From contig JAJDCH010000009.1 of assembly GCA_029260905.1 (NCBI GenBank), forward strand, positions 26,498 to 90,497: a DNA stretch of 64,000 nt. Reading direction: 5' to 3'. The notes under the pieces were generated by a model. It was given only the letters and a program-made list of their open reading frames with translations, was not told the origin of the DNA and searched no databases. Of the stretch, positions 8,014 through 40,445 are shown in pieces. Numbering within the stretch: the first letter of the stretch is position 1; every line of letters starts with the position of its first letter. This DNA comes from Candidatus Levyibacteriota bacterium. Its GTDB lineage: Bacteria > Patescibacteriota > Microgenomatia > Levybacterales > UBA12049. The position numbers were made by a program, and so were the translations under genes.

Positions 8014-10407
8014 CTACAGCCTAGCTCTTTCACCTATTTCACTCTCAACCAAATCAACGCTTTTACCATATTTAAGGCGGGATAATTCTGTTACAAGCTG
8101 TGCAACACGCTCATTCTTTATTGCCTTTTCTTTCTCAACGTCTTTGGTTGTATCAAGTGAAAATGGTGGAATTGGTTCCCCACCAACTATTGTTCTCATA
8201 TAAGCATTATATTTATCAATATTTATCAAGTCGTTTTCATTAAATGTCGGCTGAAACTCATGTTGAAGGTAGTTTGCATCTGTCACACCAACGCGGAATG
8301 ATGCAATAGTACCTACATTTCCAAAAATAGCATTTTTAATCTCCTCCTCCATTTGTCCAATAAACTGATTAGCAACAATCAGGTTCAAACGGTATTTTCG
8401 TGCCTCTGATAGGATTTGCGCGAAATCAGGAGTTGCGAAATTCTGAAACTCATCAACATAAAGGAAAAAGTCTTTCCTCTGGTCCATTGGCATATCCTGC
8501 CTACTCATAGCAGCAACCAAAATACGAGGAACAAGTATTAAGCCCAAGAAATTAGCATTTTCCTCACCAATTTTTCCTTTGGAAAGGTTGATAAGAAGTA
8601 TTTTTTTCTCATCCATTACCTTTCTAAAGTCAAAAGAACTTTTTGATTGACCAATTATGTTTCTGATCATTTTATTGGTAACAAAACGACCAAATTTTGA
8701 TGTGATGTAATCAAGAACTTCAGATTTGTGAAAATCAGATGTTTGAGCAATTTGATCTGTCCAATAACGTCTAATGATTGGATCCTCGACTTTTGGCAAA
8801 AGCTCCTGAACAAATGCCTGATCTGTCAAAACGCGGACAACCTCAATAAAAGTTGATCCTTCCTGATACATAACTGTCAACATCGCGTTTCTGACAGCGT
8901 GTTCAAATCTCGGTCCAACAATACCTGTTTTGTTTGGATCAAAAAGCTTATACATTAAACCGATAATTGAGTTGACCATGAAATGTTTTTGCTGCTCTGT
9001 CTTTGCCTCAAGCATATTAAAACCCATTGGTCTATCCATGTCTGAGGGATCAAAAAGAATAACTTCTTCTGCTCTTTTGGGTGGAATAAGTTGCAAAATG
9101 TCTTCAACCAAATCTCCATGAGGATCTATAACAGCAAGCCCCTCACCTGCATTAATATCCTGCATGATCATAGTTTTAAGAAACTCTGATTTTCCAGTAC
9201 CTGTTTTACCAACAATATATGAGTGCCGTCTCCTGTCATCAAGTCCAATAAAAACAGGTTTACTAATGCCCCTAAAACTGCTTTTTCCAAGATACAAACC
9301 CTCTGTCGCGATTTTGGATGAAACGGGCGCTCTTTTAGCTGTCAACCAATGAACACCAGGTGTTGTGACTCCTTTGTTTGGGAAATGGAAAATAGTTGCC
9401 AATTCCTCACTGGTCATAATTGAAGTCTGTCCCCAGATCGGGAAGTAACGATAAATAAAATCATTCATGAACCAGCCCTTAAACCATGTCCGTGTCTTAA
9501 TAAACGAACTGAGACCACTTGTGAACTGTCCAAATGCACCTTTAATATTGGTCAAATGGGATTTGGCATCCTGTTTTGTTTTAGCACAAACAACAATTCT
9601 GACAAGCGCTTCAAAACCAGGCTTTGTCAGTTTATTCTCAATTCCTTCAAGTTCCTTGCTGTCAGCTTTATAAGTTGCTTTCTCAGGATTTGCTTCATTT
9701 TTTTTGACAGTTCCAATATATGATCTTCCTGCATACTTCCAGTGGCTACTTGCTGGAGATACAACTATTTGTATAACTGCACCCTCCTCCTCTCTCATCT
9801 TGGCAAGAACTGATGTAATTGATGCGAGTGGATCGATTGGAAGTTCCTTAAAAACTCTAATCGGATGGTAATTTGATCCTCTTAATCTAAGGGATATAAA
9901 TTCAACCTTACCTTCTTCTGAGAAGATATTATATTCTGATCCAATCAGTGTGCCCTTTCTTTGTTTTGCAGCAGGATCTGTGACAGGTATTATTTCTGCA
10001 TCAGGATATGCGCCATTTATCTGTTTTTCAACAAAATCGCGGTATTTTTGATTAACATGAATATAGAATCTAATATCCCCTGGCATTCCAACAATTTCAA
10101 ATGCTACGTGAGGTTGTGGCTTAAAAAATATTAATTTATCAGAATGTTTTGTGATACGAAGAGCAGCAAGGCTTGCAAACATTTGTTCTGCTGCGTCTAT
10201 TTTTATTTCATTATCCCTTGGCACTGCTACTTGCAGAAGGACTGAATCAAGCGCGTCTGATTCACGCGTTCGATGTCTTATCCAGAGAAGAAAAACGTAG
10301 CCTGCTCCGTAAAAAATAAAGAACATTAAGCTAACGCTCACCACAATCCAGACAAGTGTTATTAAAAAACTAAATGGATCGTTTTGAATTAACTGCAACT
10401 GATCCAT
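8014..10407 (-). CDS. type IV secretion coupling-protein-like ATPase (VirD4/TraG/TraD family) with N-terminal TM hairpin
   Basis: Two N-terminal TM helices; Walker A YIVGKTGTGKSEF; AVIDPHGD; C-terminal FFLYVDEFQNFATP...RKYRLNLIVANQFIGQM resembling the TraG-D_C region; Walker B ILLINLSKG. About 350 extra aa lie between the TM hairpin and the NTP-binding domain. Confidence 0.55.
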   Translation of the reverse strand: MDQLQLIQNDPFSFLITLVWIVVSVSLMFFIFYGAGYVFLLWIRHRTRESDALDSVLLQVAVPRDNEIKIDAAEQMFASLAALRITKHSDKLIFFKPQPHVAFEIVGMPGDIRFYIHVNQKYRDFVEKQINGAYPDAEIIPVTDPAAKQRKGTLIGSEYNIFSEEGKVEFISLRLRGSNYHPIRVFKELPIDPLASITSVLAKMREEEGAVIQIVVSPASSHWKYAGRSYIGTVKKNEANPEKATYKADSKELEGIENKLTKPGFEALVRIVVCAKTKQDAKSHLTNIKGAFGQFTSGLSSFIKTRTWFKGWFMNDFIYRYFPIWGQTSIMTSEELATIFHFPNKGVTTPGVHWLTAKRAPVSSKIATEGLYLGKSSFRGISKPVFIGLDDRRRHSYIVGKTGTGKSEFLKTMIMQDINAGEGLAVIDPHGDLVEDILQLIPPKRAEEVILFDPSDMDRPMGFNMLEAKTEQQKHFMVNSIIGLMYKLFDPNKTGIVGPRFEHAVRNAMLTVMYQEGSTFIEVVRVLTDQAFVQELLPKVEDPIIRRYWTDQIAQTSDFHKSEVLDYITSKFGRFVTNKMIRNIIGQSKSSFDFRKVMDEKKILLINLSKGKIGEENANFLGLILVPRILVAAMSRQDMPMDQRKDFFLYVDEFQNFATPDFAQILSEARKYRLNLIVANQFIGQMEEEIKNAIFGNVGTIASFRVGVTDANYLQHEFQPTFNENDLINIDKYNAYMRTIVGGEPIPPFSLDTTKDVEKEKAIKNERVAQLVTELSRLKYGKSVDLVESEIGERARL

Positions 10408-10409
10408 AC

Positions 10410-10931
10410 TTACTCTTCCACCTTCCTTTCTTTTACTGAAAAATTAAAAACCTTCCACTGCTCAAGAATAAGCGTTGCAAGCCATCTCAACCCACTTCTT
10501 ATCTTGGATTTCTTTTGCGCAATGGTTGCATCTTCAAAACTCATCGGCAAATCTGGCTTTTGCTGATCATCAATAATAGCAAGCTCCATTGGCGCATTTT
10601 CATCAGTCAACACAACCCCAAGCTCCTCAATATCCTCAGGTAGAGAATTTGATAGACTGTCTGGTCCAGGTTTTACAAATTCTGAAACCTCAGGTGATAT
10701 AACTGCTTCAGATTTTGATTCCTCAACGATTTTCTGCTTTTCCACCTTAGCATCAACTGATATTGGATCATGTTCTGGGTGAACTGAGGCAGGCACAGTT
10801 GGTTTATCAACCAATGATTCTTTCGGTGTATTTGAAACCTCTTGTACGGGTCGATCCGCAATAGGTGTTGGCGCCTGCATTCTAGTTCCAACCTTGCCTT
10901 GAACTGATTGTGTCTGAGTGCTATTGTCCAT
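10410..10931 (-). CDS. hypothetical acidic/Pro-rich protein, translationally coupled to the downstream coupling ATPase
   Basis: Stop lies 2 nt from the start of the 8014..10407 gene; low-complexity N-terminal two thirds. Confidence 0.35.
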   Translation of the reverse strand: MDNSTQTQSVQGKVGTRMQAPTPIADRPVQEVSNTPKESLVDKPTVPASVHPEHDPISVDAKVEKQKIVEESKSEAVISPEVSEFVKPGPDSLSNSLPEDIEELGVVLTDENAPMELAIIDDQQKPDLPMSFEDATIAQKKSKIRSGLRWLATLILEQWKVFNFSVKERKVEE

Positions 10932-26165: not shown

Positions 26166-26171
26166 TTACTG

Positions 26172-26258
26172 CGGAGGGAGGGGGATTCGAACCCCCGATA
26201 ATCTTTCGACCATACGAGCTTTCCAAGCCCGCGCACTCGACCACTATGCGATCCCTCC
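26172..26258 (-). tRNA. tRNA-Ser (GGA anticodon)
   Basis: GGAGGGA acceptor, anticodon loop TTGGAAA, long variable arm, T-arm GGGGGTTCGAATCCCCC; 87 nt. Confidence 0.7.
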
Positions 26259-26344: not shown

Positions 26345-28345
26345 ATGCGCCCTGTCCTGAAACGTTTTTTTGCTTTTTGCTTTTTGCTTTTTGCTTTTTG
26401 CTTTTTGCCAAATACTGCTTTTGCCCAAACCACATCTACGTTAAATCAGACCACAAAATCAACTAATTCTTTTACTGAGCCAGATCTTGACCCCAGCGTA
26501 CCACGAAATCAGCATATTTATACTCAATCTGTGATGATTGAGGTCTTATCAGCAGTTGTTTGTCAGATAACAGGGCTTGATCCTGTTAACCCTTATCAGG
26601 GGTGTCTTGGCGTCAATCCCCAGACTCGAAAACTTAGCCTCATCCCACCCAGTCTTGATGAAAAAGGCAGTCCACAAGTGGGGGGGTTACTTGGCGCCAG
26701 CGCCAACATGATTGCAGTGCTTTATGTTCCAACAACTAGCTCTACAGATTATTTTAAGCACGTCGCCGGTAATTTTGGCCTAGTCAAGTCCGCACAAGCA
26801 CAAGAGGATAATAGCTATGGTTTGATTGCTCTTCAGCCTGTCTTTGGTCTTTGGGAAACAGTTCGTAATGTCTCATATACACTTCTTGTTCTGGCATTTG
26901 TGTTCATCGGTGTTGGAATCATGGTTAGATTTAAAATAGATCCAAGAACTGTTATGAATCTCCAAAACCAAATCCCAAGAGTAATCATCACAATTATTCT
27001 TATCACTTTTTCTTATGCAATATCAGCTGTTCTTATTGACATGATGTGGGTTAGTACTTATGCAGGAGTAAGGGTGCTTGGAGATAGTAGCGATACGAAA
27101 ATAAATGACTGTAAAAGCGATAAACCTGAAAGTCTTTCTGAAAACGCAACCAAAAACCTGCTTCAAACACCGCTTACTTATTTCCACAATGTCTTTGGAG
27201 AATGTGATGAGAGTGATGTAAACAAGTACGATGGTGGTTTTCATCGTGTTACATTTGGAGTTGCTGGCAATCTAGGACAAGTCCTCAATGACACAGCCAA
27301 AAGTCTTTTTCAAACAGATGAAAACCGTGAAGAGGGCTGCTTCAGTTTTTCAGGAATCAAACCAAACATCAACCCAGGCGCTTGTCTGATCTCAGGCATC
27401 ACTGGAGTGATGAGCTTCATGCTTATAATTGTTATCTTTGTAATTCTTTTAATTACACTTTTTAGGATCTGGTTTGCGCTTTTGAAGGCATACATCTATA
27501 CACTTGTTTTTGTTATTACTGCGCCTGTTTATTATGTGCTTGGTCTTTTACCCTCCCGTCCTCTTGGATTTCAAAAATGGCTGAGGTCTTTTTTCGCAAA
27601 TATCGCTGTTTTCCCGATAACTGCATTTGTCTTGGTGGGCGCGCGCCTCATGATAGATCTTTACAAAAACGATCTAGCAGATAAATTTGTGCCTCCATTG
27701 GTGGGAACGCCGGTTGGTGCCAATTTCGGAGTCTTAATGGCATTTGGTGCTCTTCTCATCACTCCCTCTCTACAACAGATTCTCAAAGACAAACTAGGTG
27801 TCAAGGGTATTGCGTCACCTGGTCTTATCGCAGCAGGTCTTGCAGTTGGAGCATCCCCTGTCAGCTATCTTGCAGGACGCATGAAGGGCAATCTAACAAG
27901 ACGAGATTCCCATGGTAATCCAATCGGCTCTGTGTCAAGAGGCGTTGAACAAATAGGAAAAAGCGCATATGCGGGGACTATTGGCAAGCTCCCAGGAGGA
28001 GTAGGTAAATGGGCAACACAAAGACAAAAAGAAAATTATGAAATGCGCGCAATGGGAATGGGTGGGAAAACAACCTACAAAGAATTCTTAAAAACAACAG
28101 GCATGAGCGGGAAAGAGATTGATGAAGGCGTTGGTAATATAATACGAGATAAAAAATATAAAGACGACGATTCTGGTAAAGCAAGAGATAAAGCACTAAG
28201 AGACATGACGCATGAAAAGGCTAGAAACCGTCATGTTGACTTTGGTTCCCATGTCCAACACGGAGAATCTGGAACTGGCAGGACTGCTCCAAGAAGACAA
28301 ACACCACCAGACAACAATAACGGTGAAGATAGCAACACTGGTTAA
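26345..28345 (+). CDS. polytopic membrane protein, candidate VirB6/TrbL-like type IV secretion channel component
   Basis: Signal peptide, about 150-aa extracytoplasmic region, at least six TM helices, hydrophilic Gly/Lys-rich C-terminal tail. Start placed at ATG 26345 because the track ORF start (26246) runs into a tRNA. Confidence 0.4.
   Translation: MRPVLKRFFAFCFLLFAFCFLPNTAFAQTTSTLNQTTKSTNSFTEPDLDPSVPRNQHIYTQSVMIEVLSAVVCQITGLDPVNPYQGCLGVNPQTRKLSLIPPSLDEKGSPQVGGLLGASANMIAVLYVPTTSSTDYFKHVAGNFGLVKSAQAQEDNSYGLIALQPVFGLWETVRNVSYTLLVLAFVFIGVGIMVRFKIDPRTVMNLQNQIPRVIITIILITFSYAISAVLIDMMWVSTYAGVRVLGDSSDTKINDCKSDKPESLSENATKNLLQTPLTYFHNVFGECDESDVNKYDGGFHRVTFGVAGNLGQVLNDTAKSLFQTDENREEGCFSFSGIKPNINPGACLISGITGVMSFMLIIVIFVILLITLFRIWFALLKAYIYTLVFVITAPVYYVLGLLPSRPLGFQKWLRSFFANIAVFPITAFVLVGARLMIDLYKNDLADKFVPPLVGTPVGANFGVLMAFGALLITPSLQQILKDKLGVKGIASPGLIAAGLAVGASPVSYLAGRMKGNLTRRDSHGNPIGSVSRGVEQIGKSAYAGTIGKLPGGVGKWATQRQKENYEMRAMGMGGKTTYKEFLKTTGMSGKEIDEGVGNIIRDKKYKDDDSGKARDKALRDMTHEKARNRHVDFGSHVQHGESGTGRTAPRRQTPPDNNNGEDSNTG
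26365..26408 (+). repeat. heptanucleotide tandem repeat (TTTTTGC) x6 inside the signal-peptide codons of the VirB6-like gene
   Basis: Read directly: tttttttgc tttttgc tttttgc tttttgc tttttgc tttttgc, encoding FAFCFLLFAFCFL. Confidence 0.8.
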
Positions 28346-31300
28346 TTAGATTTCGTCTGTTGGGCAATTGCTCTGATGAAAAATCCAAGCGCTGCCAAAA
28401 ACGCAACAAAACCTATCTTGCCATCAGGATGCCCTCTTTGACCAACAGTCAGATCTTTCAACATCTGGACACCAAACATCCTTTCTGTTGCAGTTTTTGC
28501 CCTCTTATGAAACCACTCCATATCAGCCTTGTTGAAATATCCTTCTTCAGCCTTAATCTTACCCAATTTTGTAAATTCATCACCCTCAATATCAACCGGC
28601 AGACTTTTTAATGCATCAATAACATTGAGATAATAGGTAAAATCATACCTTGGGTCTTTTGCATGATAAGCTTTATGGGCTAGGAAATCTGCTGCGAATT
28701 TCGACATAATAAACTGCTTAACAAGAAGCCTCTGGTTTTTGCTATCCTGCACTTTATGATAATCAATCCTGATCCTTCCATCTTCATCTCTTTCATAACC
28801 ACCATCTTTACTATCTTTCCAAAATTCTTTTCTGTTTAGCATGTCATAACCAAACATTGCCTCACCAAGTGGCATATCCCGCCAGACAGGCTTGCCAAGC
28901 ACAATTGTGGCCTGCTGATCAAGCGATCTGACCTTTCTTGAAAAATCAAGTTTTCCATAATCTCTAAATAAATATCTAAGAGGTTTAACAAAGTTTTTCT
29001 GGTAAGCATTGGTAAATTTCTCAGCATCAAATGTCACACCTTTTAATGGATGGTGAGTTGTAAAATCCTCAAACTTAAACTGCTCCTTCTGCTCCATAAT
29101 GGTGTCATACATATGAAGCGCCTTCTGGAAATGATCACGAACATAATATTCCTGAGCACCCTGCTCAAATTGCAATTTACCAGCCCTATCAAGATAAGCT
29201 TGATCCATCTGAGATTTTGCCTCAGCCATTCTCTTTTCTTTTTCTTCTTTTGAGAGACCTGCGCCATTCAGATCTGCGTTAAGCTTTTCAAGTAGTTTTT
29301 TTTGTGTTGTCTTCAGCTTTATCAGCTCATCAAATATCTCAAGAGGTGTGCGATAACGCTTAACTGAATCCTTTACCCACTCGCCTTTTTCATTTCTATA
29401 CTCACGGTCAACTTCTTCAAAATCGGTTGTCCTTATACCGCTCCACATATCAACCAGCAGCGACTTCATCTGAAACATAGAGAAAAAATTACCAAAAAAA
29501 TCTCCCCTTGGAAGCATTTTGTTTCGATATTGCTGAAAATGCATAAGCCTGTTATAGCGGTTAAAACCTCCTGCTTCTACATCATTTCTACCTGCTCCTC
29601 CTGAAAAACCAGGAATGGAGTTTGCAAGCATATATGCATACCATCTGGCATGCTCGTCCCTTTTACCATCATCATCATTTAGTTCATACTTGTCTCCCAC
29701 CACCTCCATGAGGGCATATTTAAGAAAAGTTTCTACATTTGGATCAGGACCCTTATCACCATAAATATTTATAAACTTGATAAAATTCTCTGCCTGCTCT
29801 CTTGTCTCCACTCTACCTGTTTTTGCATCAAATGCTTTTTCAAAATACTTAAGCTTTTCAGCTGTAAATGGTGCGGACTGTCTTTTCTCGCCAGACACAC
29901 CAGTCTGCATGCTTTGAACATTCTTGAAAATCTCAAGCATTTTTTTCTTATCAAAGAAATCAGACTTTGACCCCAGCATTTCCCGCAGTTTGTCAAAATC
30001 AGACAAATGATGAAGTATGTGATGCATCTCAAGCCAAGCAGCACCAAGATTGTTATCTGACTGAAACTCTTCTCCTTTTTTATATCCTTTGAATTTATGA
30101 GAAAAAGTAGTCATCAGATTCAAAAGATTTTTTTCAAAAGTTTGTTTGGTAAGCTTACTGTCTAAAAACGCTTCGAGCATTCCTTGCTTGAGCTTGTCTG
30201 GCTCATCCCTTATTTTATGAAGCTGAGTACTCCAACTATGAGTAAGCGTAAGCGCCATTGACTGCTTAACCAGCTGACGATAAAGCTCATAGTATTCAGT
30301 TTTACCATCTTCGCTATTAAAAAATTTCTTTGGGTTAAGAAAAACATCTTGCAGTGAAACAGTACCAAAACCAGAAGGTCTATCGATCTTAACAGCGCTA
30401 AAAAAATCAACAGGGCTTTCCTGATTAAAGTCCCAAGCAAACCACATCCTGTTTTGCGCCCAGGTCACAAAATTGGATTCATTTACATAGTATTTACTTT
30501 TTTCTGTATCTATTACTTTTTTCCCATTCTCTAGCACATAACCCTTCCTTGGATCATCATCTATATGTTTGTAAATAATCCGCATTTCAAGCAGAGGAAA
30601 ACGTCCGCTTAGTCCCCATTCGCCATGACCATAACCATTCATAGCTCTCCAGGCAAGTCCCTCAATTGAATCAGGATTTCTATCTGCCTCATGATCATTT
30701 TCAGCTGTAAAATCTTTATAAAAAACAAACTTTCTGATCCAATCAAATGGAAGGTTTAATTTTTGCAAAAGACAGAAAGCTGCAGGGTTGTTTTTATAAT
30801 TCTCTGCTTGCCCTCTCTTCTCAGGATCATTAAGCCATTGATCAATTTGTGTTTTCGACTCCTGCGCCAATGTTTCAAGATTGGAAAAATCCTCAGGCTT
30901 TTTACCTTTAGCAAGCATTATTTCAAGTACTGATTTTGCCTGTCCAAAATCAAGATTAAGGTGAGTTACAAGATTTTTACCTACTTGTTTTATTTTTTCA
31001 TTGGTCCAACCCGTACCATACTCACTCCAATCAACCTTAATCTTTGACATCTTAACTACATCTGTCTCTTGTTTTATAAGTCCTCCATTCTCATTTTTCT
31101 CCACCCTCTCTCCGTTCTTGTCCTCTGCCACAAACCTCCACTCATCTCTTTTCCCTTTTATTGCCTCTCCTGGTGGTGGTTCGTTCTGTCTCTCATTCCA
31201 CTGATGTCCCTCCCTGCCCCCATTTATGCCACCGATTGTTGAAAGACCTTGTTGGATATCCTCTTCAATTTTTTGCATCTTGCGTCGCCACTGCCCAATT

Positions 31301-31518
31301 TCCATTTCAGCTCTTATCTGCCTATCCAACTCGTCCTTATCCGCAAGACTTCCACCCCTGGGTGGACCCATTCCGCGTTTTATAAACTCCATTACCGAGA
31401 ATCGCTTCTCATGTGGCAAATCCTCTATTCGCTTGCCTTCATGGGCTTCCCATTCTTTTTCCGCCCTTAACTGTTCTGGTGTTTTTTCGCTTGTCTGGTC
31501 AAGTACTGCTGCTTCCAT
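28342..31518 (-). CDS. giant hypothetical protein (1058 aa), K/E-rich, cytoplasmic, with a single C-terminal TM tail anchor
   Basis: Long uninterrupted frame; no signal peptide; C-terminal GKIGFVAFLAALGFFIRAIAQ; convergent 4-nt overlap with the VirB6-like gene. Confidence 0.45.
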   Translation of the reverse strand: MEAAVLDQTSEKTPEQLRAEKEWEAHEGKRIEDLPHEKRFSVMEFIKRGMGPPRGGSLADKDELDRQIRAEMEIGQWRRKMQKIEEDIQQGLSTIGGINGGREGHQWNERQNEPPPGEAIKGKRDEWRFVAEDKNGERVEKNENGGLIKQETDVVKMSKIKVDWSEYGTGWTNEKIKQVGKNLVTHLNLDFGQAKSVLEIMLAKGKKPEDFSNLETLAQESKTQIDQWLNDPEKRGQAENYKNNPAAFCLLQKLNLPFDWIRKFVFYKDFTAENDHEADRNPDSIEGLAWRAMNGYGHGEWGLSGRFPLLEMRIIYKHIDDDPRKGYVLENGKKVIDTEKSKYYVNESNFVTWAQNRMWFAWDFNQESPVDFFSAVKIDRPSGFGTVSLQDVFLNPKKFFNSEDGKTEYYELYRQLVKQSMALTLTHSWSTQLHKIRDEPDKLKQGMLEAFLDSKLTKQTFEKNLLNLMTTFSHKFKGYKKGEEFQSDNNLGAAWLEMHHILHHLSDFDKLREMLGSKSDFFDKKKMLEIFKNVQSMQTGVSGEKRQSAPFTAEKLKYFEKAFDAKTGRVETREQAENFIKFINIYGDKGPDPNVETFLKYALMEVVGDKYELNDDDGKRDEHARWYAYMLANSIPGFSGGAGRNDVEAGGFNRYNRLMHFQQYRNKMLPRGDFFGNFFSMFQMKSLLVDMWSGIRTTDFEEVDREYRNEKGEWVKDSVKRYRTPLEIFDELIKLKTTQKKLLEKLNADLNGAGLSKEEKEKRMAEAKSQMDQAYLDRAGKLQFEQGAQEYYVRDHFQKALHMYDTIMEQKEQFKFEDFTTHHPLKGVTFDAEKFTNAYQKNFVKPLRYLFRDYGKLDFSRKVRSLDQQATIVLGKPVWRDMPLGEAMFGYDMLNRKEFWKDSKDGGYERDEDGRIRIDYHKVQDSKNQRLLVKQFIMSKFAADFLAHKAYHAKDPRYDFTYYLNVIDALKSLPVDIEGDEFTKLGKIKAEEGYFNKADMEWFHKRAKTATERMFGVQMLKDLTVGQRGHPDGKIGFVAFLAALGFFIRAIAQQTKSN

Positions 31519-31650
31519 AAAATCTCCTTTCTTTAAGATACTACTACCATCATATCTAGTAGCAGATCACAGTGTCAATTGAGGCAATTGTAGCCCTATA
31601 AAGCAGAACAAGCTTTATATATAAATTACAAGAAGTTAACAAAACAGTTT

Positions 31651-31678
31651 TTGCGCTTTGAGTTTTGCGCTTTGAGTT
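31651..31678 (+). repeat. 14-bp direct repeat x2 (TTGCGCTTTGAGTT) overlapping the promoter of the regulator gene
   Basis: ttgcgctttgagtt ttgcgctttgagtt is followed at once by TATAAT (31680-31685) and ATG 31692. Confidence 0.75.
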
Positions 31679-31685
31679 TTATAAT
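31658..31685 (+). promoter_or_regulatory. putative promoter TTGAGT-16nt-TATAAT embedded in the direct repeats, leaderless-type
   Basis: The -35-like TTGAGT lies inside the first repeat copy; TATAAT sits 6 nt before the ATG. Confidence 0.35.
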
Positions 31686-31691
31686 CTATTT

Positions 31692-33026
31692 ATGGACGAA
31701 TATTTTGAAGCAACATATCCTGATACCGCACGAATTGCGACACTGAGTCAAATTGCCGATTTTGTCAAAAAAGGCGAATCCGCACAGCTGATTGGATTGC
31801 CCACATCTGGAAGATCTATAATTCTCAGACTCCTTGCACACAACAGCAAAGTGCGGTCAAAACACTTTGGCAAAAATTCCAAATTCCATTTTGTATTAAT
31901 TGACTTTTCAGAAATAAAAAACAGATCACTTTTTGACTGCATGAAGTTTTTCTTTTTGTCCCTGTCTGATTCTCTAAGAGCACGAGGAATGGATGAAGAA
32001 TATAAAAAAGTAAATCAATTATTTAAAGAGTCACTCAGCTTTAATGACGAGCTGGTTTTGTTTCAGGCCTTAAAAGACGCATTTGACTATCTTATCCTTG
32101 AAAGAAACCTAAACATTACATTACTCTTTGACAGATTTGAAGAATATATTCCAAGTATTACAGATCAGTTTTTTACCAACCTTCGCACTCTTCGCTCTCG
32201 CGCAATTTATAAGTTTTCAGTTATTTTTTCTCTTACCCGTCCGCTTGAGACCATGCTTGACCCATTACTTCTTGCCGATTTTTATGAACTAATTGCCGGC
32301 AATCTGATATTTCTATCCCTTGCAGATAGTGAAATAAACAAAACAAGAATAAAACATATTGAAAAAGTAACAGGCAAAAAACTCTCTTCAGTTCTTTTTG
32401 ATGAACTAACAAAACTGACAGGCGGAGCGGGCAAGCTTCTAAAAATTTCTACAGAAAGCATATTGGCCAATCAACAATTTAACAATTTAGCTATAGAGCA
32501 ATTGAGCAAAAATTTATTGCCCCAAAAACCAGTTCAAAAAACTCTGTCTGAAATCTTGCGTTCTCTGACACCTGAGGAACAGTCAGATCTCCTTACTCAA
32601 AAGTATGATAACTCTGATGTTGAGGAATATTTCGAAAAAATAGGTCTTGTTAAAAATAAAAGGATTCAAATTCCACTTTTTGAGGAATATCTGAAATCAG
32701 ATTTGATTAAAAATTCAATAAATGAAGAAAAAATTTTCTATGATAAAAATACCAATACAATCAAAAAGGGCGAGACAACTGTTTCTGACCAGCTTACTTC
32801 ATCTGAGTTCTTACTTCTCAGGCATCTTTTGCAAAATAAAGGTCAGGTTATAACTCGCGATGATATAATCAGCGCTGTCTGGCCGGATGTGAAATCAACT
32901 GCAGGAATAACTGATCAAGCAGTTGATCAGTTGATATTTAGATTAAGAAGAAAAATTGAAGAAAATCCCGCCAGTCCAGTCTATCTTTTTACTATTAAAG
33001 GACGCGGTTTCAAGTTTGAATCATAG
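31692..33026 (+). CDS. transcriptional regulator: N-terminal NTPase-like domain (degenerate P-loop) fused to a C-terminal OmpR/PhoB-type winged-helix DNA-binding domain, with no receiver domain
   Basis: C-terminus LTSSEFLLLRHLLQNKGQVITRDDIISAVWPDV...VDQLIFRLRRKIEEN...TIKGRGFKF is a Trans_reg_C signature; N-terminal LIGLPTSGRSIILRLL is P-loop-like. Start placed at ATG 31692; the track start is 31665. Confidence 0.55.
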   Translation: MDEYFEATYPDTARIATLSQIADFVKKGESAQLIGLPTSGRSIILRLLAHNSKVRSKHFGKNSKFHFVLIDFSEIKNRSLFDCMKFFFLSLSDSLRARGMDEEYKKVNQLFKESLSFNDELVLFQALKDAFDYLILERNLNITLLFDRFEEYIPSITDQFFTNLRTLRSRAIYKFSVIFSLTRPLETMLDPLLLADFYELIAGNLIFLSLADSEINKTRIKHIEKVTGKKLSSVLFDELTKLTGGAGKLLKISTESILANQQFNNLAIEQLSKNLLPQKPVQKTLSEILRSLTPEEQSDLLTQKYDNSDVEEYFEKIGLVKNKRIQIPLFEEYLKSDLIKNSINEEKIFYDKNTNTIKKGETTVSDQLTSSEFLLLRHLLQNKGQVITRDDIISAVWPDVKSTAGITDQAVDQLIFRLRRKIEENPASPVYLFTIKGRGFKFES

Positions 33027-33075: not shown

Positions 33076-33609
33076 ATGAAAGAGGGTAATCACATTGTTA
33101 TTCCATTCAGACCGAAAGTACGCGGTGGGGAAACAGTGCCTCAAGTAGAACAAAAAAAGAAAAAGCAATCAACTCTAAAAACAGCTATGGATTTGGTGCA
33201 GGAGCATGATCCCGCTATTCCTCAAACAACAAAAAGATTTTCAATGCGACAAAGATATCGAGGCAACTGGAGGATGCTTAGAACATCAGCTGGTAGAGAA
33301 ATGTACAACAAGGTTCTAGCGATAAAATATCTTCGCGCAGAAACAGCAAGCAAAAAAGAGCAATCCAAACCTAACAGGGAAAATGAAAAAGCACCAAGAA
33401 CGCGACAAAAAGAAACGCTGGTTGCGAGTTTCAAAAACAGAAAAAGGCTTAGAAAAGAAAGCGCTGCAACTGGAATAAATCTTGGTATGTTTGTGCCAGA
33501 GACTCCAAAACAAGAAATTGACTCCAAGCTAAAAAAAGAATTAAGAAACAGACCATTTACTGTTTTTGATGCAGGAAAAAATAAAACAAAGGAGAAACAA
33601 GCCGCTTAA
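33076..33609 (+). CDS. hypothetical highly basic (K/R-rich) protein
   Basis: No TM helix; about 30% K plus R; possibly nucleic-acid binding. Confidence 0.35.
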   Translation: MKEGNHIVIPFRPKVRGGETVPQVEQKKKKQSTLKTAMDLVQEHDPAIPQTTKRFSMRQRYRGNWRMLRTSAGREMYNKVLAIKYLRAETASKKEQSKPNRENEKAPRTRQKETLVASFKNRKRLRKESAATGINLGMFVPETPKQEIDSKLKKELRNRPFTVFDAGKNKTKEKQAA

Positions 33610-33652
33610 GACTCCCCTTGCAATTTCTCAAAACTCAAAGTAATCTATAGAC

Positions 33653-33976
33653 ATGGCTTATCTTGCTCAATTGCGACTTCCAGGCGGCAACAATATCGAT
33701 GCCCCAAAAGGCATTCCCCAGGGTGGAATAAATGAAGTTCAATCAATCTTCAGCAACAGCATTACTATCATGATTATACTGACAATCATTCTTGCTCTTT
33801 TCTTTCTTATCTGGGGAGGTATCCAATGGATCACATCAGGTGGGGATAAAAATAAGGTAGCACAAGCCCGAGCCAAACTAACCTGGGCAATAATTGGTGT
33901 TGTTGTTGCTTTTGTTTCGTTTTTAATCGTAAATCTTATTGGATACTTCTTTAATATCCCAATTTTCGGGTCTTAA
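33653..33976 (+). CDS. VirB2/TrbC-like small membrane protein (pilin candidate), paralogue 1
   Basis: Two TM helices flanking the invariant FFLIWGGIQWITSGGDKNKVAQARAK motif shared with the next two genes. The N-terminus lacks a clear signal peptide, so the start is uncertain. Confidence 0.4.
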   Translation: MAYLAQLRLPGGNNIDAPKGIPQGGINEVQSIFSNSITIMIILTIILALFFLIWGGIQWITSGGDKNKVAQARAKLTWAIIGVVVAFVSFLIVNLIGYFFNIPIFGS

Positions 33977-34043
33977 ACTTTATCAATTCTTCTTTTGGCT
34001 ATTGACAAGGAGAAAAAAAATATACTATCATTGAGTTAATCCT

Positions 34044-34469
34044 ATGAAAAAGGCACAAAACATAATCTTAGCTTTATTTGTCGCTCTATCTCTTTTTGTC
34101 TTTACACCAGCTGTTGTTTTTGCTGGTCCTACGATAAATCCATGTCCAGACGGAGCTGACGGAGGCGGAACTGACTTCGGCAACCTTTGCGACCTTGACG
34201 CTGACCAAGTCGGTCCATTGATTTCAAGAGTTGTACAGATTCTTCTTATCGCTGCTGCAATTATTGCTCTTTTCTTTCTCATCTGGGGAGGTATTCGCTG
34301 GGTAACATCAGGTGGAGACAAAGCCAAGGTAGATGAAGCCAGAAAACACATTGTTGCTGCAATAATTGGTCTGATTATTGCTTTCCTAGCATTCTTTATC
34401 TTAAGTTTTGTACTTAACCTCTTTGGAATAAGCCTTACTGAATTACAGCTTCCACAGCTTACTCCATAA
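34044..34469 (+). CDS. VirB2/TrbC-like small membrane protein (pilin candidate), paralogue 2
   Basis: Signal peptide, then TM-loop-TM with FFLIWGGIRWVTSGGDKAKVDEARKH. Confidence 0.45.
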   Translation: MKKAQNIILALFVALSLFVFTPAVVFAGPTINPCPDGADGGGTDFGNLCDLDADQVGPLISRVVQILLIAAAIIALFFLIWGGIRWVTSGGDKAKVDEARKHIVAAIIGLIIAFLAFFILSFVLNLFGISLTELQLPQLTP

Positions 34470-34514
34470 ACCTAAACTTGCTTTTCTACCCACGTCTTTG
34501 ATAGGCTAAATAAA

Positions 34515-34919
34515 ATGACACAAATTAAAAAATCCTTTGTTTTTTTCTTAATGCTTACAGGCTTATTTGCTATGCTCCCAAGTCCAGCTCTCGCAAACAG
34601 CTGGGACAGTTGTGTTAAAAAGCTTCCAGCCGGAGGCGAGGTCCCAACTCTTAGATGTTTTCCGGTTGTATTTAGCAATCTTACCAGCACAGCTCTTACA
34701 TTTGTGGGCGCAGTTGCTGTAATTCTTATTGTCTATTCGGGCATCAAATTTGTAACATCAGGTGGAGATCCCAAGAAAGTCGGTGAAGCTCGAGCAATTA
34801 TGACCTATGCGATAATTGGTGCAGTAATAGTTCTGCTATCTTTTACAATAATTTATCTGATTAGCTACTTTACAGGCGCGGATTGTGTAACTGATTTTTC
34901 TATTGGAAGCTGCAATTAA
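34515..34919 (+). CDS. VirB2/TrbC-like small membrane protein (pilin candidate), paralogue 3
   Basis: Signal peptide, then TM-loop-TM with ILIVYSGIKFVTSGGDPKKVGEARAI. Confidence 0.45.
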   Translation: MTQIKKSFVFFLMLTGLFAMLPSPALANSWDSCVKKLPAGGEVPTLRCFPVVFSNLTSTALTFVGAVAVILIVYSGIKFVTSGGDPKKVGEARAIMTYAIIGAVIVLLSFTIIYLISYFTGADCVTDFSIGSCN

Positions 34920-35035
34920 AACGGTGGTTTGGCCTCTTTTCATCAAAACTTTTCACAAAAACCCTGTCAATCTGGATCATTTGACACACTTTGTTCCGGT
35001 TGAAATGCTATTTTTCACATTATACACTGATTGAA

Positions 35036-36397
35036 ATGGACCAGCACCCAATACCCCAAGATGTTACAGGCTTTCAATTTAAGCTTATTGGAAGCATGAC
35101 TGTAAAACAGTTTGGCTTTGTTGCAACTGGGGTTATAATGGCAGTTCTTTTCTACTACCTGCCACTTAGCGGGTTTTTTGGTATTCTTTTCAAGATTTTT
35201 GCAATTCCCTTTTTTGGAGCAAGTGGCTTTATAATTGCATTTGTACCAATTGATGGCAGGTCAATTGATGTAATGGTCGGAAATTTTACTAAAGCGCTTT
35301 TTTCTCCCAATCAGTACGTCTATCACAAACTCGGCAAAAAATTTAGCTTCTCAACAGTCAATACTCACAAGAGTCTTTTTGCCCAAAATCAAACCACCAG
35401 CTCTCATCCAAAACAAGAAGTAACACAAAAAACAGATCAGCTTCGATCATTTCTAAAAGAAAGCGTCAAATCAAAACCAAAAAGCGCATTAGATGAAAAA
35501 GAAGCTGCTTTTATCAGCTCTTTTGCTCCAGCACCTCAAACAACTCCCCAAGCGGCCATTTCTTCACATCCAACAAAAAACATACCCATGCTTCAGCAAG
35601 CACAACAAATACTGTCATCTATAAAGCCGGTTCAAACCATTACGCACCAAACACCTAACCAAACCCCTCAACAAACAAAAAAGGCCATCCAAGATACTAC
35701 AAATCCAATTGATCAAAATAACCCAACTAGTAAAAATGTGCCTGAGCATAATCAAGCACCAGCTGCAAAACCAATAGACGCAGAGCCTGACTCGCTTCAT
35801 AAACAAATTCAAGAAGCGCATAACCAAAAACTCAGACTAGAAAAAGAATTGGCTGATTTAAAAGCTCAACTAGGCACGCGTAAAACCCAACCAGAACCTG
35901 AACCATCTCAAGCAGCAACACAGATGTCTTCAACGACAACCACCCCTGCTCAACCAACAAAACCAACAGAAACAAACACTATGCCTGCTACACAGCCTCA
36001 ACAAGCGACAACGTCAGTTGCTCCAACACCAAGCTCAACACACGTAAGAAGTATTCCAAAAGAACAATCTAAAAAAATGGGTCTTCTCGCGCCAGATACT
36101 CCAAATGTCATAGTTGGTGTAGTCAAAGACGCCAGAGGCAATCTTCTCCCAAACGTGCTTGTTGAGGTCAAAGACAGGGAAGAAAACCCAGTTCGCGCAT
36201 TTAAAACAAATCCTCTTGGACAGTTTGTTTCAGCAACCCCTCTTTTACCGGGCGCGTATACAATAAGCCTTGAGGACCCCAAAAAACAACACACATTTGA
36301 TGAGATTCAGATAACGGCAGGCGGCCAAATCTTACCACCCATTGAGATAATTTCTTATGACGCCAGAGAACAACTAAGAAGAGAGTTGTTTAATTAA
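35036..36397 (+). CDS. PrgI/VirB3-like membrane domain fused to a Q/T/P-rich linker and a C-terminal carboxypeptidase-regulatory-like beta-sandwich domain
   Basis: N-terminus MDQHPIPQDVTGFQFKLIGSMTVKQFGFVATGVIMAVLFYYLP...FVPIDGRSIDVMVGNF matches the PrgI-family pattern; C-terminus VIVGVVKDARGNLLPNVLVEV...GAYTISL is CarboxypepD_reg-like. Start placed at the internal Met. Confidence 0.45.
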   Translation: MDQHPIPQDVTGFQFKLIGSMTVKQFGFVATGVIMAVLFYYLPLSGFFGILFKIFAIPFFGASGFIIAFVPIDGRSIDVMVGNFTKALFSPNQYVYHKLGKKFSFSTVNTHKSLFAQNQTTSSHPKQEVTQKTDQLRSFLKESVKSKPKSALDEKEAAFISSFAPAPQTTPQAAISSHPTKNIPMLQQAQQILSSIKPVQTITHQTPNQTPQQTKKAIQDTTNPIDQNNPTSKNVPEHNQAPAAKPIDAEPDSLHKQIQEAHNQKLRLEKELADLKAQLGTRKTQPEPEPSQAATQMSSTTTTPAQPTKPTETNTMPATQPQQATTSVAPTPSSTHVRSIPKEQSKKMGLLAPDTPNVIVGVVKDARGNLLPNVLVEVKDREENPVRAFKTNPLGQFVSATPLLPGAYTISLEDPKKQHTFDEIQITAGGQILPPIEIISYDAREQLRRELFN

Positions 36398-36409
36398 TTT
36401 ATATAACTT

Positions 36410-37093
36410 ATGCCTGTTCAAAAAGCACATGCTACAACGCAAAAATTTACAGAGATTGTTGACTTTGTCGACAATCTGGTAATCCTTGAGGGGGGAGCTG
36501 CTTGCCTTGTGATTGAAATAACAGCTAGCAACTTCTCGCTTCTATCCAGAAGAGAGCAGGATTCTCGTATTTTTTCTTACGCTTCGCTTCTTAATTCACT
36601 TTCTTTTCCAATACAAATACTTATCAGAAATAAAAAAATGGATATATCGCTTTATCTAAGAGAGCTAGATGCTGTTGTTAAAAGCACCAAAAACGAACAA
36701 CTGGCAACATATATTGATTATTATCGAGATTTTGTTCAGGAAATGGTGACAGTAAACGTTGTTTTAAACAAAGCTTTTTATATCGTCATTCCATTTTCAT
36801 CACTTGAGCTGGGCATTGGTGGAGCAACAAAACAAGCAACAAAAAAAGGCTCTCCAGCCCCATCTCAAAAAGATGTTTTTGCTCAAACAGCTGCAAAAGC
36901 TCTGCAATCAAAGGCAAGCTCAGTCCTTGGACAGCTTCAAAAATTTGCGGTAACAGCTCGTGTTCTTGAAAAGGAAGACCTAGTGAAGCTTTTTTATGAT
37001 ATATACAATGACGGCGCAAATATAGGAACTGAGCAGGTAAAAGATGCTGCAGATACTCCAATCATAAGAAAAGAAGGAGAAGTTCAAGCATGA
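36410..37093 (+). CDS. hypothetical protein, possibly the detached N-terminal domain of a split VirB4
   Basis: EIVDFVDNLVILEGGAACLVIEITASNFSLLSRREQDS resembles the VirB4 N-terminal region. ATGA overlap with the downstream VirB4 ATPase gene. Confidence 0.3.
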   Translation: MPVQKAHATTQKFTEIVDFVDNLVILEGGAACLVIEITASNFSLLSRREQDSRIFSYASLLNSLSFPIQILIRNKKMDISLYLRELDAVVKSTKNEQLATYIDYYRDFVQEMVTVNVVLNKAFYIVIPFSSLELGIGGATKQATKKGSPAPSQKDVFAQTAAKALQSKASSVLGQLQKFAVTARVLEKEDLVKLFYDIYNDGANIGTEQVKDAADTPIIRKEGEVQA

Positions 37094-39144
37094 AAATCCC
37101 ATTTTTAAATAAATCATCCAAACAAACACCCACCTCACAAGTGGTAAAAAAAGCGCAAGGCGTTCCCCAACAAAAAACTGCACCTCAGGTTGTAAAACCG
37201 CAACAAAATAAAGCTATTGCAACGCTTGAGAAGGGCGCAACGTCAGTTATTGACATAATAGCTCCCTCATCTGTTGAAGTTGACTTTCGTTATGTCAGGG
37301 TTGGCGAGACCTATTACACAACTCTTTTTCTCGCTGGCTATCCACGCTATGTTTCTCCAGGCTGGCTAACGCCAATTATTGATTATGACCATACATTGGA
37401 TATCAGCATGTTTATTTACCCAACCTCATCATCAGACGTTCTTAGTGATTTAAAAAGAAAAATTGGTGAAATGCAAGCAACTATTTCATCTGATGCAGAA
37501 GCAGGCAAAGCAACAGACCCGACAGTTGAGGCGGCGCTTGAAGACGCGCTTGGTCTTCAGGAAGAGCTAGCCAAGGGAGTTGAGAGATTCTTCCAGTTTG
37601 GTTTTTATATCACTGTTTCAGCAGGAGACCTGGGAGAACTCCAAGAAACAACCAAAGAATTAAAAACCACACTAAGCTCTCTTCTTCTTGCAGGCAAAAC
37701 AGCAACTCTTCAGTCAGAAGAAGGCTTTAAGTCAACTCTTCCAATCGGACAAGACAGGCTTTATATAACACGAAATATGGATACCACCTCTCTTGCAACC
37801 ACCTTTCCCTTCACATCAGCTGTTTTAACTCAAAATAAAGGCGTAATGTATGGAGTGAATCAACAGAATGGGTCACTTATCATCTTTGACAGATTTTCCC
37901 TTGAAAATGCCAATGAGGTGGTTCTTGGAAAATCTGGCGCGGGAAAATCTTACACAATTAAGCTTGAAATCGCCAGACAATTCATGCTTGGCGCAGAGGT
38001 TATTGTAATTGATCCTGAAGGAGAGTATGGAACACTTACTCCAACCCTCGGAGGTGAGACAGTTGATTTTTCATCAAACTCCGAAGTAAAACTAAACCCT
38101 TTTGACCTTGCAGATGTTTATGAAGAGGGCGAAAACCAATTGGGGTTGAAGATTCTTTCTCTACACGGACTTCTAAAAATAATCATGGGGGACATGGATG
38201 CAGAGCATGATGCTATTCTAGACAGAGCCTTAATTGAAACTTATCGTCAAAAGGGAATAACTACCGACCCTGCAACCCAAAAAAAACAACCCCCACTTAT
38301 GGAAGATCTTTATAAAGCGCTCCTTGGCATGGAAACACAAACTGCAAAAGACCTAGCTTTCAGGCTCGAGAAATTCATCAAAGGTTCTGCTGCTGGGATT
38401 TTTAATCAACAATCAAACTTCGTAATCGACAATCCTCTAACAGTTTTTTCAATCCGAAACCTTGAAGAGGAGTTAAGACCAGTTGCAATGCACATCATTC
38501 TTGATTTTGTCTGGACAAAGGTTAAAAAAACTCTTAAAAAAAGAATTCTGATCCTTGATGAAGCATGGTACATGATGAAATATCAGGACTCTGCATCGTT
38601 TGTCTACTCAATTGCAAAAAGAGCGCGTAAATACTACCTTGGCATGACCACGGCTACACAAGATGTCGAAGACTTTCTCAAAAACGAATATGGCAAGGCG
38701 GTTCTCACCAACTCATCAATCCAAATACTTCTTAAGCAAGGGACTGCTGAGGTCGATATGATCGCTGATACGTTTTATTTATCGGAGGGAGAAAAGGCCC
38801 TTCTTCTTTCATCTGATGTAGGGGAAGGACTTTTCTTTGCCGGACAAAACCATGTAACCATGAAGGTGTTTGCAGCGCCTTTTGAGCATGAATTGATAAC
38901 ATCCAATCCTCAAGAGGTTATGAAACGACAAGAAGAAGAAAAGGCAGAAAGAGACACTGAGGCAGCAGAGTCAGCTTCTCAAGCTCCACAAGCAGCACAG
39001 CAGACCACAACACAACAACCTAGCCCTCAGACAACACCACAAACACCTGCTCCTGAAGCGCCAGCTGCTCCCCAAGCCCAAAATTCCACAACTCCAACTA
39101 CTACACCTCCGGGTGTTCCCCCAACTGCTCAGCAGACATCATAG
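37090..39144 (+). CDS. VirB4/TrbE/CagE-family type IV secretion ATPase (ATPase portion) with Pro/Gln/Thr-rich C-terminal tail
   Basis: Walker A VVLGKSGAGKSYTIK, VIVIDPEGEY, Walker B RILILDEAW, and the upstream GYPRYVSPGWL region typical of VirB4. Confidence 0.7.
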   Translation: MKIPFLNKSSKQTPTSQVVKKAQGVPQQKTAPQVVKPQQNKAIATLEKGATSVIDIIAPSSVEVDFRYVRVGETYYTTLFLAGYPRYVSPGWLTPIIDYDHTLDISMFIYPTSSSDVLSDLKRKIGEMQATISSDAEAGKATDPTVEAALEDALGLQEELAKGVERFFQFGFYITVSAGDLGELQETTKELKTTLSSLLLAGKTATLQSEEGFKSTLPIGQDRLYITRNMDTTSLATTFPFTSAVLTQNKGVMYGVNQQNGSLIIFDRFSLENANEVVLGKSGAGKSYTIKLEIARQFMLGAEVIVIDPEGEYGTLTPTLGGETVDFSSNSEVKLNPFDLADVYEEGENQLGLKILSLHGLLKIIMGDMDAEHDAILDRALIETYRQKGITTDPATQKKQPPLMEDLYKALLGMETQTAKDLAFRLEKFIKGSAAGIFNQQSNFVIDNPLTVFSIRNLEEELRPVAMHIILDFVWTKVKKTLKKRILILDEAWYMMKYQDSASFVYSIAKRARKYYLGMTTATQDVEDFLKNEYGKAVLTNSSIQILLKQGTAEVDMIADTFYLSEGEKALLLSSDVGEGLFFAGQNHVTMKVFAAPFEHELITSNPQEVMKRQEEEKAERDTEAAESASQAPQAAQQTTTQQPSPQTTPQTPAPEAPAAPQAQNSTTPTTTPPGVPPTAQQTS

Positions 39145-39167
39145 AGCTTTTTTGCTACTATTAAACT

Positions 39168-40445
39168 ATGGACATTGAGAACAAATTACCAGAAGAAGAT
39201 CAATCAGAAGAACAAGAAAACAATGACCGATCTAGCCCCTCAAATCCCAGCTCCAATGGCAGGGGTGAAAAAAAGGAAGCCAAGAACGAAGTAAAACAAA
39301 ACAAAAAAGAAAATATTGACAAAAACGATCAAAAAGCTAAGGGCAAAGATGATGCTCTCAATCAACAACACAGCAAAGATAAAGGGCTAGGACTTTTAAG
39401 CAAAAAATTAAAGGCTGTTCGCGAAGCAAAAAGAGGAGAGAGGCTTAAGGCTGCAAAAACCTTAGCCAAAAGCGCAATCAAAAAAAAAGTTTTGCAAGCT
39501 GCTAAAAAAGGTCTTATTGCTGGTGGAAACACCATTGCGCCTGGACTTGGTACTGCTACAGGGTTTGCTATAGATCATCCCAAAACAGCTGCAATTATTG
39601 TTGTCTTGGCCATTACACTTCCAATTATAATATTAACTATGGTTTTTTCTGCATTTACCAGTTCTTTAAACACTTCTGGTGAGGGTGATTCCGTTTTTGT
39701 TTCAGGCTCTTGTCCACATGATGCGATTGCTGGCGGCGTGGCAGAATGTTCGATAAACGTTTCTTATCCTGGAGAAGCATCAGACATACTAATTTCAATT
39801 GACCTTCCACCTGGCACTGAATATATCGACTCTGTGCCTGAAGCCACTTTTGACGGCAAGACCATCTCGTGGAGTCTTATTGGCCCAAACCCCTTACCAA
39901 ACGCAAAACTAAGCAATGTCAACACAACCCTGCTTTTCCATCTACGTGGAAGTGGTGTTCCCTCGGCAAGCCTACCCATTGCTTACTCGATTGTTCCATT
40001 TGTTGAATCAGAAACCCCCATTCAAGAAGCATTAAACAATTCTGGTTGTGATGGATCAACCCCGAATAATCCTCATGGAAATTTTGGCAACCCAAATTGC
40101 GATTTTAATAAAAATGAATTGGGTAAAATTTTAAGAAGAGAAGACCCTGCCAACGCATACAAATGGGATGCAATAATAGCTTGTGAGAGTACATACAACC
40201 CAAACGCCTATAATCCAAATTCCTCTAGTGGAAAAGGGGCATATGGGCTTTTGCAGATGAATCCCGCACAACAAAGAACTGATATTTATAGATTTGATGC
40301 TGGAAATGTAAACTGGAACCCAGACAGTAGGCCACTTGGTGTTGCAGCAGGAGCACAGGTTACAAACGCAATAAACTATAATACTATTGGATTGAAAGGA
40401 AGTTTCAAGTATTGGGAATGTAGAAAGGCAGCTGGAATAAGATGA
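39168..40445 (+). CDS. membrane-anchored cell-wall hydrolase: DUF11-like repeat domain plus Rpf-type lysozyme-like transglycosylase domain (VirB1 functional analogue)
   Basis: K-rich N-terminus, TM (AAIIVVLAITLPIIILTMVF), DUF11-like SINVSYPGEASDILISIDLPPGTEYI, and C-terminal WDAIIACESTYNPNAYNP...GKGAYGLLQMNP resembling the Rpf transglycosylase-like domain. Confidence 0.5.
   Translation: MDIENKLPEEDQSEEQENNDRSSPSNPSSNGRGEKKEAKNEVKQNKKENIDKNDQKAKGKDDALNQQHSKDKGLGLLSKKLKAVREAKRGERLKAAKTLAKSAIKKKVLQAAKKGLIAGGNTIAPGLGTATGFAIDHPKTAAIIVVLAITLPIIILTMVFSAFTSSLNTSGEGDSVFVSGSCPHDAIAGGVAECSINVSYPGEASDILISIDLPPGTEYIDSVPEATFDGKTISWSLIGPNPLPNAKLSNVNTTLLFHLRGSGVPSASLPIAYSIVPFVESETPIQEALNNSGCDGSTPNNPHGNFGNPNCDFNKNELGKILRREDPANAYKWDAIIACESTYNPNAYNPNSSSGKGAYGLLQMNPAQQRTDIYRFDAGNVNWNPDSRPLGVAAGAQVTNAINYNTIGLKGSFKYWECRKAAGIR

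Follow-up and report, generated by a model that had tools for sequence, protein, structure and literature searches.

REG, a candidate one-component regulator with a degenerate STAND-like module beside the T4SS-like pilin cluster of a Levybacteria-like bacterium

The REG gene and its conserved neighborhood

Within the 64,000-nucleotide stretch of Candidatus Levyibacteriota DNA analyzed here (the window), a gene for a 444-amino acid protein, termed REG, runs from an ATG at 31692 to a stop codon at 33026 (Table 1). An alignment with 54 orthologues, all of which begin at the M-x-x-E-x-FE motif encoded from this ATG, fixes the start of the gene, and the identical protein (P0001) is present in both NCBI and Logan. 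Among related Levybacteria-like genomes with detectable pilin genes, REG adjoins the T4SS pilin cluster or is no more than about 4 kb away from it in 46 of 46 GTDB species loci. In each, it is placed between the genes for the VirB6-like and ~1000-amino acid proteins on one side and those for the pilins, PrgI, the TraC-like protein, VirB4 and the hydrolase on the other. This linkage holds down to 39% and 34% identity; neither a Roizmanbacteria paralogue nor a canonical relative shows it. REG is divergent from the pilin genes in 31 loci; in the other 15 both point the same way, and the window has this co-directional minority arrangement.

Table 1. Features of the REG locus, in coordinates of the window
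Feature	Position	Strand	Basis or remark
VirB6/TrbL-like membrane protein, opposite locus edge	26346..28345	+	orthologue's weak TrbL match, synteny
1058-aa protein, unknown fold, syntenic partner of REG	28342..31518	-	
Perfect tandem repeat, TTTTGCGCTTTGAG x2.3, internal TTTGnnn heptads	31649..31680		
REG promoter: -35 TTGAGT 31658-63, 16-nt spacer, -10 TATAAT 31680-85	31658..31685	+	
Regulator gene REG, 444 aa plus stop	31692..33026	+	start from alignment with 54 orthologues
N-terminal STAND-like module, aa 1-345: nucleotide-binding domain, helical lid, winged-helix-like subdomain	31692..32726	+	
Walker A-equivalent loop GLPTSGRS, aa 35-42, Arg41 for canonical Lys	31794..31817	+	aligned to GxxGxGKS of distant relatives
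Walker B-equivalent strand TLLFDRFEEY, Arg148 for catalytic Glu	32118..32147	+	aligned to hhhhDEFD of relatives
TGGAGK glycine-rich lid motif	32418..32435	+	T243, G244, G245, G247 conserved; position 248 = K or R
OmpR/PhoB-type winged-helix DNA-binding domain, aa 346-444	32727..33023	+	
Orphan basic ORF, 177 aa, pI 10.6, between REG and pilins	33076..33609	+	own TTGACA-17-TATATT promoter
Pilin-1 promoter: TTGCAA, 17 nt, TAATCT, 6 nt to ATG 33653, leaderless	33618..33646	+	read from sequence; architecture recurs in orthologues
CTTTGAGTTTTGAG, inverted 13/14 match to REG repeat CTTTGAGTTTTGCG, fills pilin-1 promoter spacer	33627..33640	-	
Three VirB2-like T4SS pilin genes (candidate targets), 33653-33976, 34044-34469, 34515-34919	33653..34919	+	Pfam T4SS_pilin, E 2e-9 to 1e-11
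T4SS-like core, four genes	34991..40445	+	Pfam, synteny
PrgI/VirB3-like gene	34991-36397	+	Pfam
TraC-like gene	36410-37093	+	label from orthologue
VirB4-like ATPase	37090-39144	+	Pfam
SLT-domain hydrolase	39168-40445	+	Pfam

The ~1000-amino acid protein is encoded directly downstream of REG on the same strand in three loci with gene calls, with gaps of 46-77 nt in two of them, and is divergent from REG in the window. The window's 1058-amino acid version matches nothing in Pfam, PADLOC or PDB, and a word-indexed search returned one distant homologue only. Further out, the start of the VirB6-like gene is fixed by a tRNA-Ser at 26171-26258, and this gene carries heptanucleotide frameshift arrays.

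An earlier note on this DNA had proposed REG as the regulator of the downstream basic protein, the pilin-like genes and the T4SS-like genes. The synteny with the pilins in every informative locus strongly supports a locus-specific regulator. The basic 177-amino acid ORF, on the other hand, is an ORFan, with nothing homologous to it among related loci or 5.8 billion protein clusters, and it was rejected as a conserved target of REG.

Domain architecture and relatives of REG

The C-terminus of REG (residues 367-442) matches Pfam Trans_reg_C (PF00486) with E=3.3e-18 and 66 bits, where the cut-off is 26.2, spanning profile positions 5-77 of 77. Its fold fits the OmpR/PhoB type, with an N-terminal beta-sheet preceding three helices and a hairpin wing at the C-terminus. 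In residues 1-345, neither Response_reg nor any other Pfam family scores above threshold, and NCBIfam response-regulator models align to REG via their C-terminal ~100 positions only, far below their cut-offs. REG therefore does not belong to the response regulators, as it has no receiver and its N-terminus folds as a P-loop NTPase. These results confirm what the earlier note had read from the letters, namely an NTPase-like domain, put there at roughly 350 residues, ahead of an OmpR-type winged helix without a receiver; the outcome named there as contrary, a C-terminus that misses Trans_reg_C, did not occur.

The N-terminal module follows the STAND layout, in which an AAA+/STAND-type P-loop NTPase core is followed by helical and winged-helix subdomains. 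Searches for repeat-type sensor domains (TPR, WD40, LRR) gave no matches, and none of the 444 residues is left over once NTPase module and DNA-binding domain are assigned. The Pfam search proposed for the N-terminal domain was less productive: the ORC-CDC6-like match fell short of its threshold, with E=0.013 and 14.7 bits where 27 are required, and nSTAND1 did not match REG itself at E<=1, so that the link to STAND proteins comes through the family profile. This profile collects 923 cluster representatives at E<=1e-3; among 78 distant representatives, Trans_reg_C is found in 75, nSTAND1 in 37, AAA_16 in 29 and NACHT in 5. Aligned to this distant set with hhalign, the REG family profile reaches 99.96% (E=7e-39, 334 columns). 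Judged from these profiles, the N-terminal module is homologous to the nSTAND1 STAND NTPases.

Both catalytic motifs of this module are degenerate. The canonical Walker A pattern GxxxxGK[ST] is replaced by GLPTSGRS, and the Walker B pattern hhhhD[DE], with its acidic catalytic residue, by TLLFDRFEEY. Profile-profile alignment puts GLPTSGRS on the Walker A of the relatives, in agreement with the P-loop-like reading of the earlier note, but the lysine has become Arg41, which is invariant in 55 family sequences. In the same sequences, R148, F149, E150 and E151 are invariant and D147 is usually kept, and in distant relatives the position equivalent to Arg148 is E, Q or R. The lid motif TGGAGK, with its conserved basic residue, we take to be sensor-2-like from what is known of the AAA+ family. 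Because Arg takes the place of both the Walker A Lys and the Walker B Glu, the nucleotide sensing previously assigned to the P-loop is doubtful and hydrolysis is unlikely, and the module is probably catalytically dead. However, an arginine within a P-loop can still touch phosphates, and a loss of nucleotide binding is therefore not proven for REG.

The closest parallels in domain order and length are uncharacterized proteins of ~420-480 amino acids, such as P0190, in which nSTAND1 is combined with a C-terminal OmpR/PhoB domain. These relatives mostly retain GxxGxGKS and often DEFD, whereas the REG subfamily has GRS and DRFEE. The neighborhood of P0190, the sole one examined, contains TCAD9/APH-kinase-like and TPR genes and no T4SS, while REG is bound to the pilin locus. 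Relatives of ~450 amino acids also lack a repeat sensor, and the TPR protein beside P0190 is separately encoded.

Among characterized regulators, the earlier note had likened REG to AfsR/SARP or MalT, and the likeness holds in part. AfsR and the large SARPs of Streptomyces likewise pair a STAND (NB-ARC) NTPase with a winged helix of the OmpR type, and their sites are direct heptamer repeats that overlap the -35 and recur every 11 bp. However, the DNA-binding domain is N-terminal in AfsR, which also carries BTAD and TPR domains, while that of REG is C-terminal and no BTAD match was found, placing REG outside the SARP/AfsR class. MalT of Escherichia coli is, like the REG module, of the STAND class and activates transcription, but this protein of ~900 amino acids differs in its canonical P-loop, its LuxR-type HTH and the presence of a large SUPR sensor domain. 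REG instead combines an OmpR-type domain with a degenerate P-loop and no sensor domain, and its C-terminus matches Trans_reg_C and not GerE, which separates it from the MalT/LAL family.

VirG of Agrobacterium, an OmpR-family protein that activates the vir genes of a T4SS, is a precedent for an OmpR-type regulator of such a system. The NCBIfam model for VirG aligns to the DNA-binding domain of REG with E=1e-9, but the score of 38.6 bits falls far short of the curated 344-bit cut-off. As a response regulator, VirG accepts phosphate and works with the kinase VirA, whereas REG has no receiver, and no kinase was found among the Pfam-annotated genes of the REG locus. The functionally uncharacterized archaeal 'ATPase_2' proteins PABY2304 and SSO1545 (PDB 2qen, 2fna) differ from REG in having a canonical Walker A and no OmpR domain, and the Pfam ATPase_2 model does not match REG. 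An anti-phage defense STAND (Avs/bNACHT) was rejected, with no PADLOC match at E<=0.01.

It is very unlikely that REG is something other than a transcription factor, that is, a DNA-handling accessory of the T4SS that binds substrate DNA or an oriT-like site, or a protein of the Orc1/Cdc6 kind that acts at the origin. The locus does lie ~10 kb from dnaN and dnaA, near oriC. In addition, patescibacterial T4SS loci are without relaxases and usually without a nearby coupling protein (PMC12102498), and winged-helix proteins such as TcpK bind oriT (PMC6137059). Against this, the pilin cluster is the tightest conserved neighbor of REG, and a divergent promoter pair is the commonest arrangement. The C-terminus is specifically of the OmpR/PhoB type, which is almost confined to transcription regulators, and the catalytic residues of an ATP-driven loader are missing. 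With the ORC-CDC6-like model below threshold and no initiator-type C-terminal winged helix, REG falls outside the Orc1/Cdc6 initiators.

The tandem repeat and the operator question

Upstream of REG, two copies of TTTTGCGCTTTGAG that are 100% identical occupy 31649-31662 and 31663-31676 and lead into TTTT (TRF score 64); the earlier note had given the repeat in the register TTGCGCTTTGAGTT, at 31651 and 31665. A TTG at 31665 also falls within the repeat. Eighteen consecutive matches at one lag are far beyond chance as estimated from base composition, and the repeat is a real tandem duplication. The REG promoter is of the sigma-70 type (10/12 matches in a consensus scan), with its -35 in the first repeat copy and its spacer formed by the second. 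The 6 nt between TATAAT and the ATG imply a leaderless REG transcript; a gap of 6-7 nt is found in 34 of 52 REG promoters, and leaderless mRNAs look common in the window. The repeat finder and the promoter scan thus bear out the earlier description of a perfect 14-bp direct repeat on the -35 and spacer, with TATAAT 6 nt before the ATG. An RNA element at the repeat was rejected, as Rfam matched nothing but the nearby tRNA and the fold z-score was +0.7.

From this overlap, the earlier note had suggested autoregulation. Spelled out, the proposal is that the repeat is the cognate operator of REG, on which two OmpR-type domains would sit head to tail across the -35 and spacer, with the N-terminal domain sensing nucleotide by its P-loop. 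Taken as a whole, this proposal is rather unlikely. Beyond the promoter overlap itself, it draws on the inverted 13/14 copy in the pilin-1 spacer before 33653, which is likewise arranged as two heptads. In motif statistics that are post hoc, the pattern TTTGAGNTTTGMG has 2 exact matches in the window against 0.08 expected, and the REG and pilin-1 promoters have a 12-mer in common, for which the null probability of >=11 shared is 1.2%. TTTGnnn heptads are also present in the REG promoters of three orthologues (L049, L015 and L012). Those of L049 and L015 align to the REG repeat at equal distance from the ATG, with local alignment scores of 34 for L049, above the null maximum of 29, and 28 for L015, within the null range. 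More broadly, short direct repeats are found in 41% of REG promoters and in 24% of 346 control promoters (p=0.012).

Several results speak against the operator proposal. Copies resembling TTGCGCTTTGAGTT with <=2 mismatches are absent upstream of 33076, 26346 and 8014-10931, and from the rest of the window outside the repeat; with <=3 mismatches, 14 are found against 10.1 expected, and such copies were rejected as evidence of a regulon. An any-phase search with <=1 mismatch finds 3 loci in the window against 0.9 expected, two of them within coding regions. The sharing between REG and pilin-1 promoters does not rise above the null in 13 other co-directional loci, and the pattern is missing from all 61 other loci. 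The earlier note had named absence from orthologous promoters as evidence against its claim, and the repeat is indeed missing from about 48 of 51, though the recognition helix is invariant. Across these 51 promoters, k-mer enrichment and a position-anchored consensus recover only the -35 (TTGAAGA) and -10 (GTACAAT) and no conserved operator. Half-sites of OmpR/PhoB/SARP proteins are usually spaced 10-11 bp apart, whereas a period of 14 or 7 bp turns each site ~120 or 240 degrees around the helix from the one before. Additionally, 7-bp tandem repeats are common in genomes of the lineage, and the paired Walker substitutions weigh against the nucleotide-sensing part.

A better-placed alternative, though still somewhat short of even odds, is that the repeat has no connection to REG binding, having arisen by replication slippage and been fixed because it supplied a usable -35 or as a neutral change. 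An inversion from the commoner gene orientation, and hence the loss of the TTGAAGA/GTACAAT promoter, may have come first. The window is consistent with this sequence of events, since it is co-directional and lacks the family promoter consensus cTTGAAGA / gTACAATa, in which the -10 ends 6-7 nt upstream of the ATG. Were there a single repeat copy, only 2 nt would separate TTGAGT from TATAAT, and a distance of 16-18 nt would offer no -35-like hexamer. Furthermore, perfect short tandem repeats are frequent, with strong ones in 2-5% of control promoters. However, slippage leaves the inverted pilin-1 copy and the heptads of L049 and L015 unexplained.

Autoregulation through the repeat is therefore weakly supported. 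The TTTGAG heptads and the inverted pilin-1 copy are possible REG binding sites, at odds distinctly against; if REG does bind heptads between the -35 and -10, repression by occlusion follows.

A proposed regulator of the host-contact machine

REG is best explained, with a probability of roughly 0.6, as a one-component, locus-specific regulator of the chromosomal T4SS-like (VirB2-pilin/VirB3/VirB4/VirB6) cluster of a Levybacteria-like bacterium, and its position beside the pilin genes makes it a likely candidate switch for the T4SS-like machine. The bacterium, assigned by its nearest relatives, belongs to the Microgenomates within the ultra-small CPR/Patescibacteria. The N-terminal module would have lost NTP hydrolysis and may act as a conformational or oligomerization scaffold, bringing at least two DNA-binding domains to the promoters of REG and the pilins. 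Control would probably be exerted by a partner protein or a bound anionic ligand, not by an ATPase cycle, with the syntenic ~1000-amino acid protein as the best candidate partner. The 14-bp repeat, for its part, would be a lineage-specific duplication that gave the promoter its -35 box (TTGAGT, 16 nt from TATAAT) and filled its spacer.

A more specific and improbable extension of this regulator model is that REG is a dead STAND switch that reads the T4SS-like host-contact machine via a tail-anchored ~1000-amino acid protein or another partner, and sets pilin transcription from the TTTGAG-type heptads in the REG and pilin-1 core promoters. If true, then together with the VirB6-like frameshift arrays, CPR epibionts would gain two-layer control, transcriptional and phase-variable, of an essential host-interaction apparatus.

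T4SSs are widespread across Patescibacteria, and the only lineage amenable to genetics cannot grow epibiotically without its T4SS genes (PMC12102498). The published survey of patescibacterial T4SS loci describes no regulator (PMC12102498), and REG is therefore undescribed, although the survey does not independently support the regulator reading. A conserved DNA-binding protein beside the pilins offers a cheap and concrete entry to how host-dependent bacteria turn on their host-contact machine. In addition, REG is a natural case of a STAND module under strong purifying selection despite the loss of both catalytic residues, and it thus bears on how STAND switches operate without an ATPase cycle.

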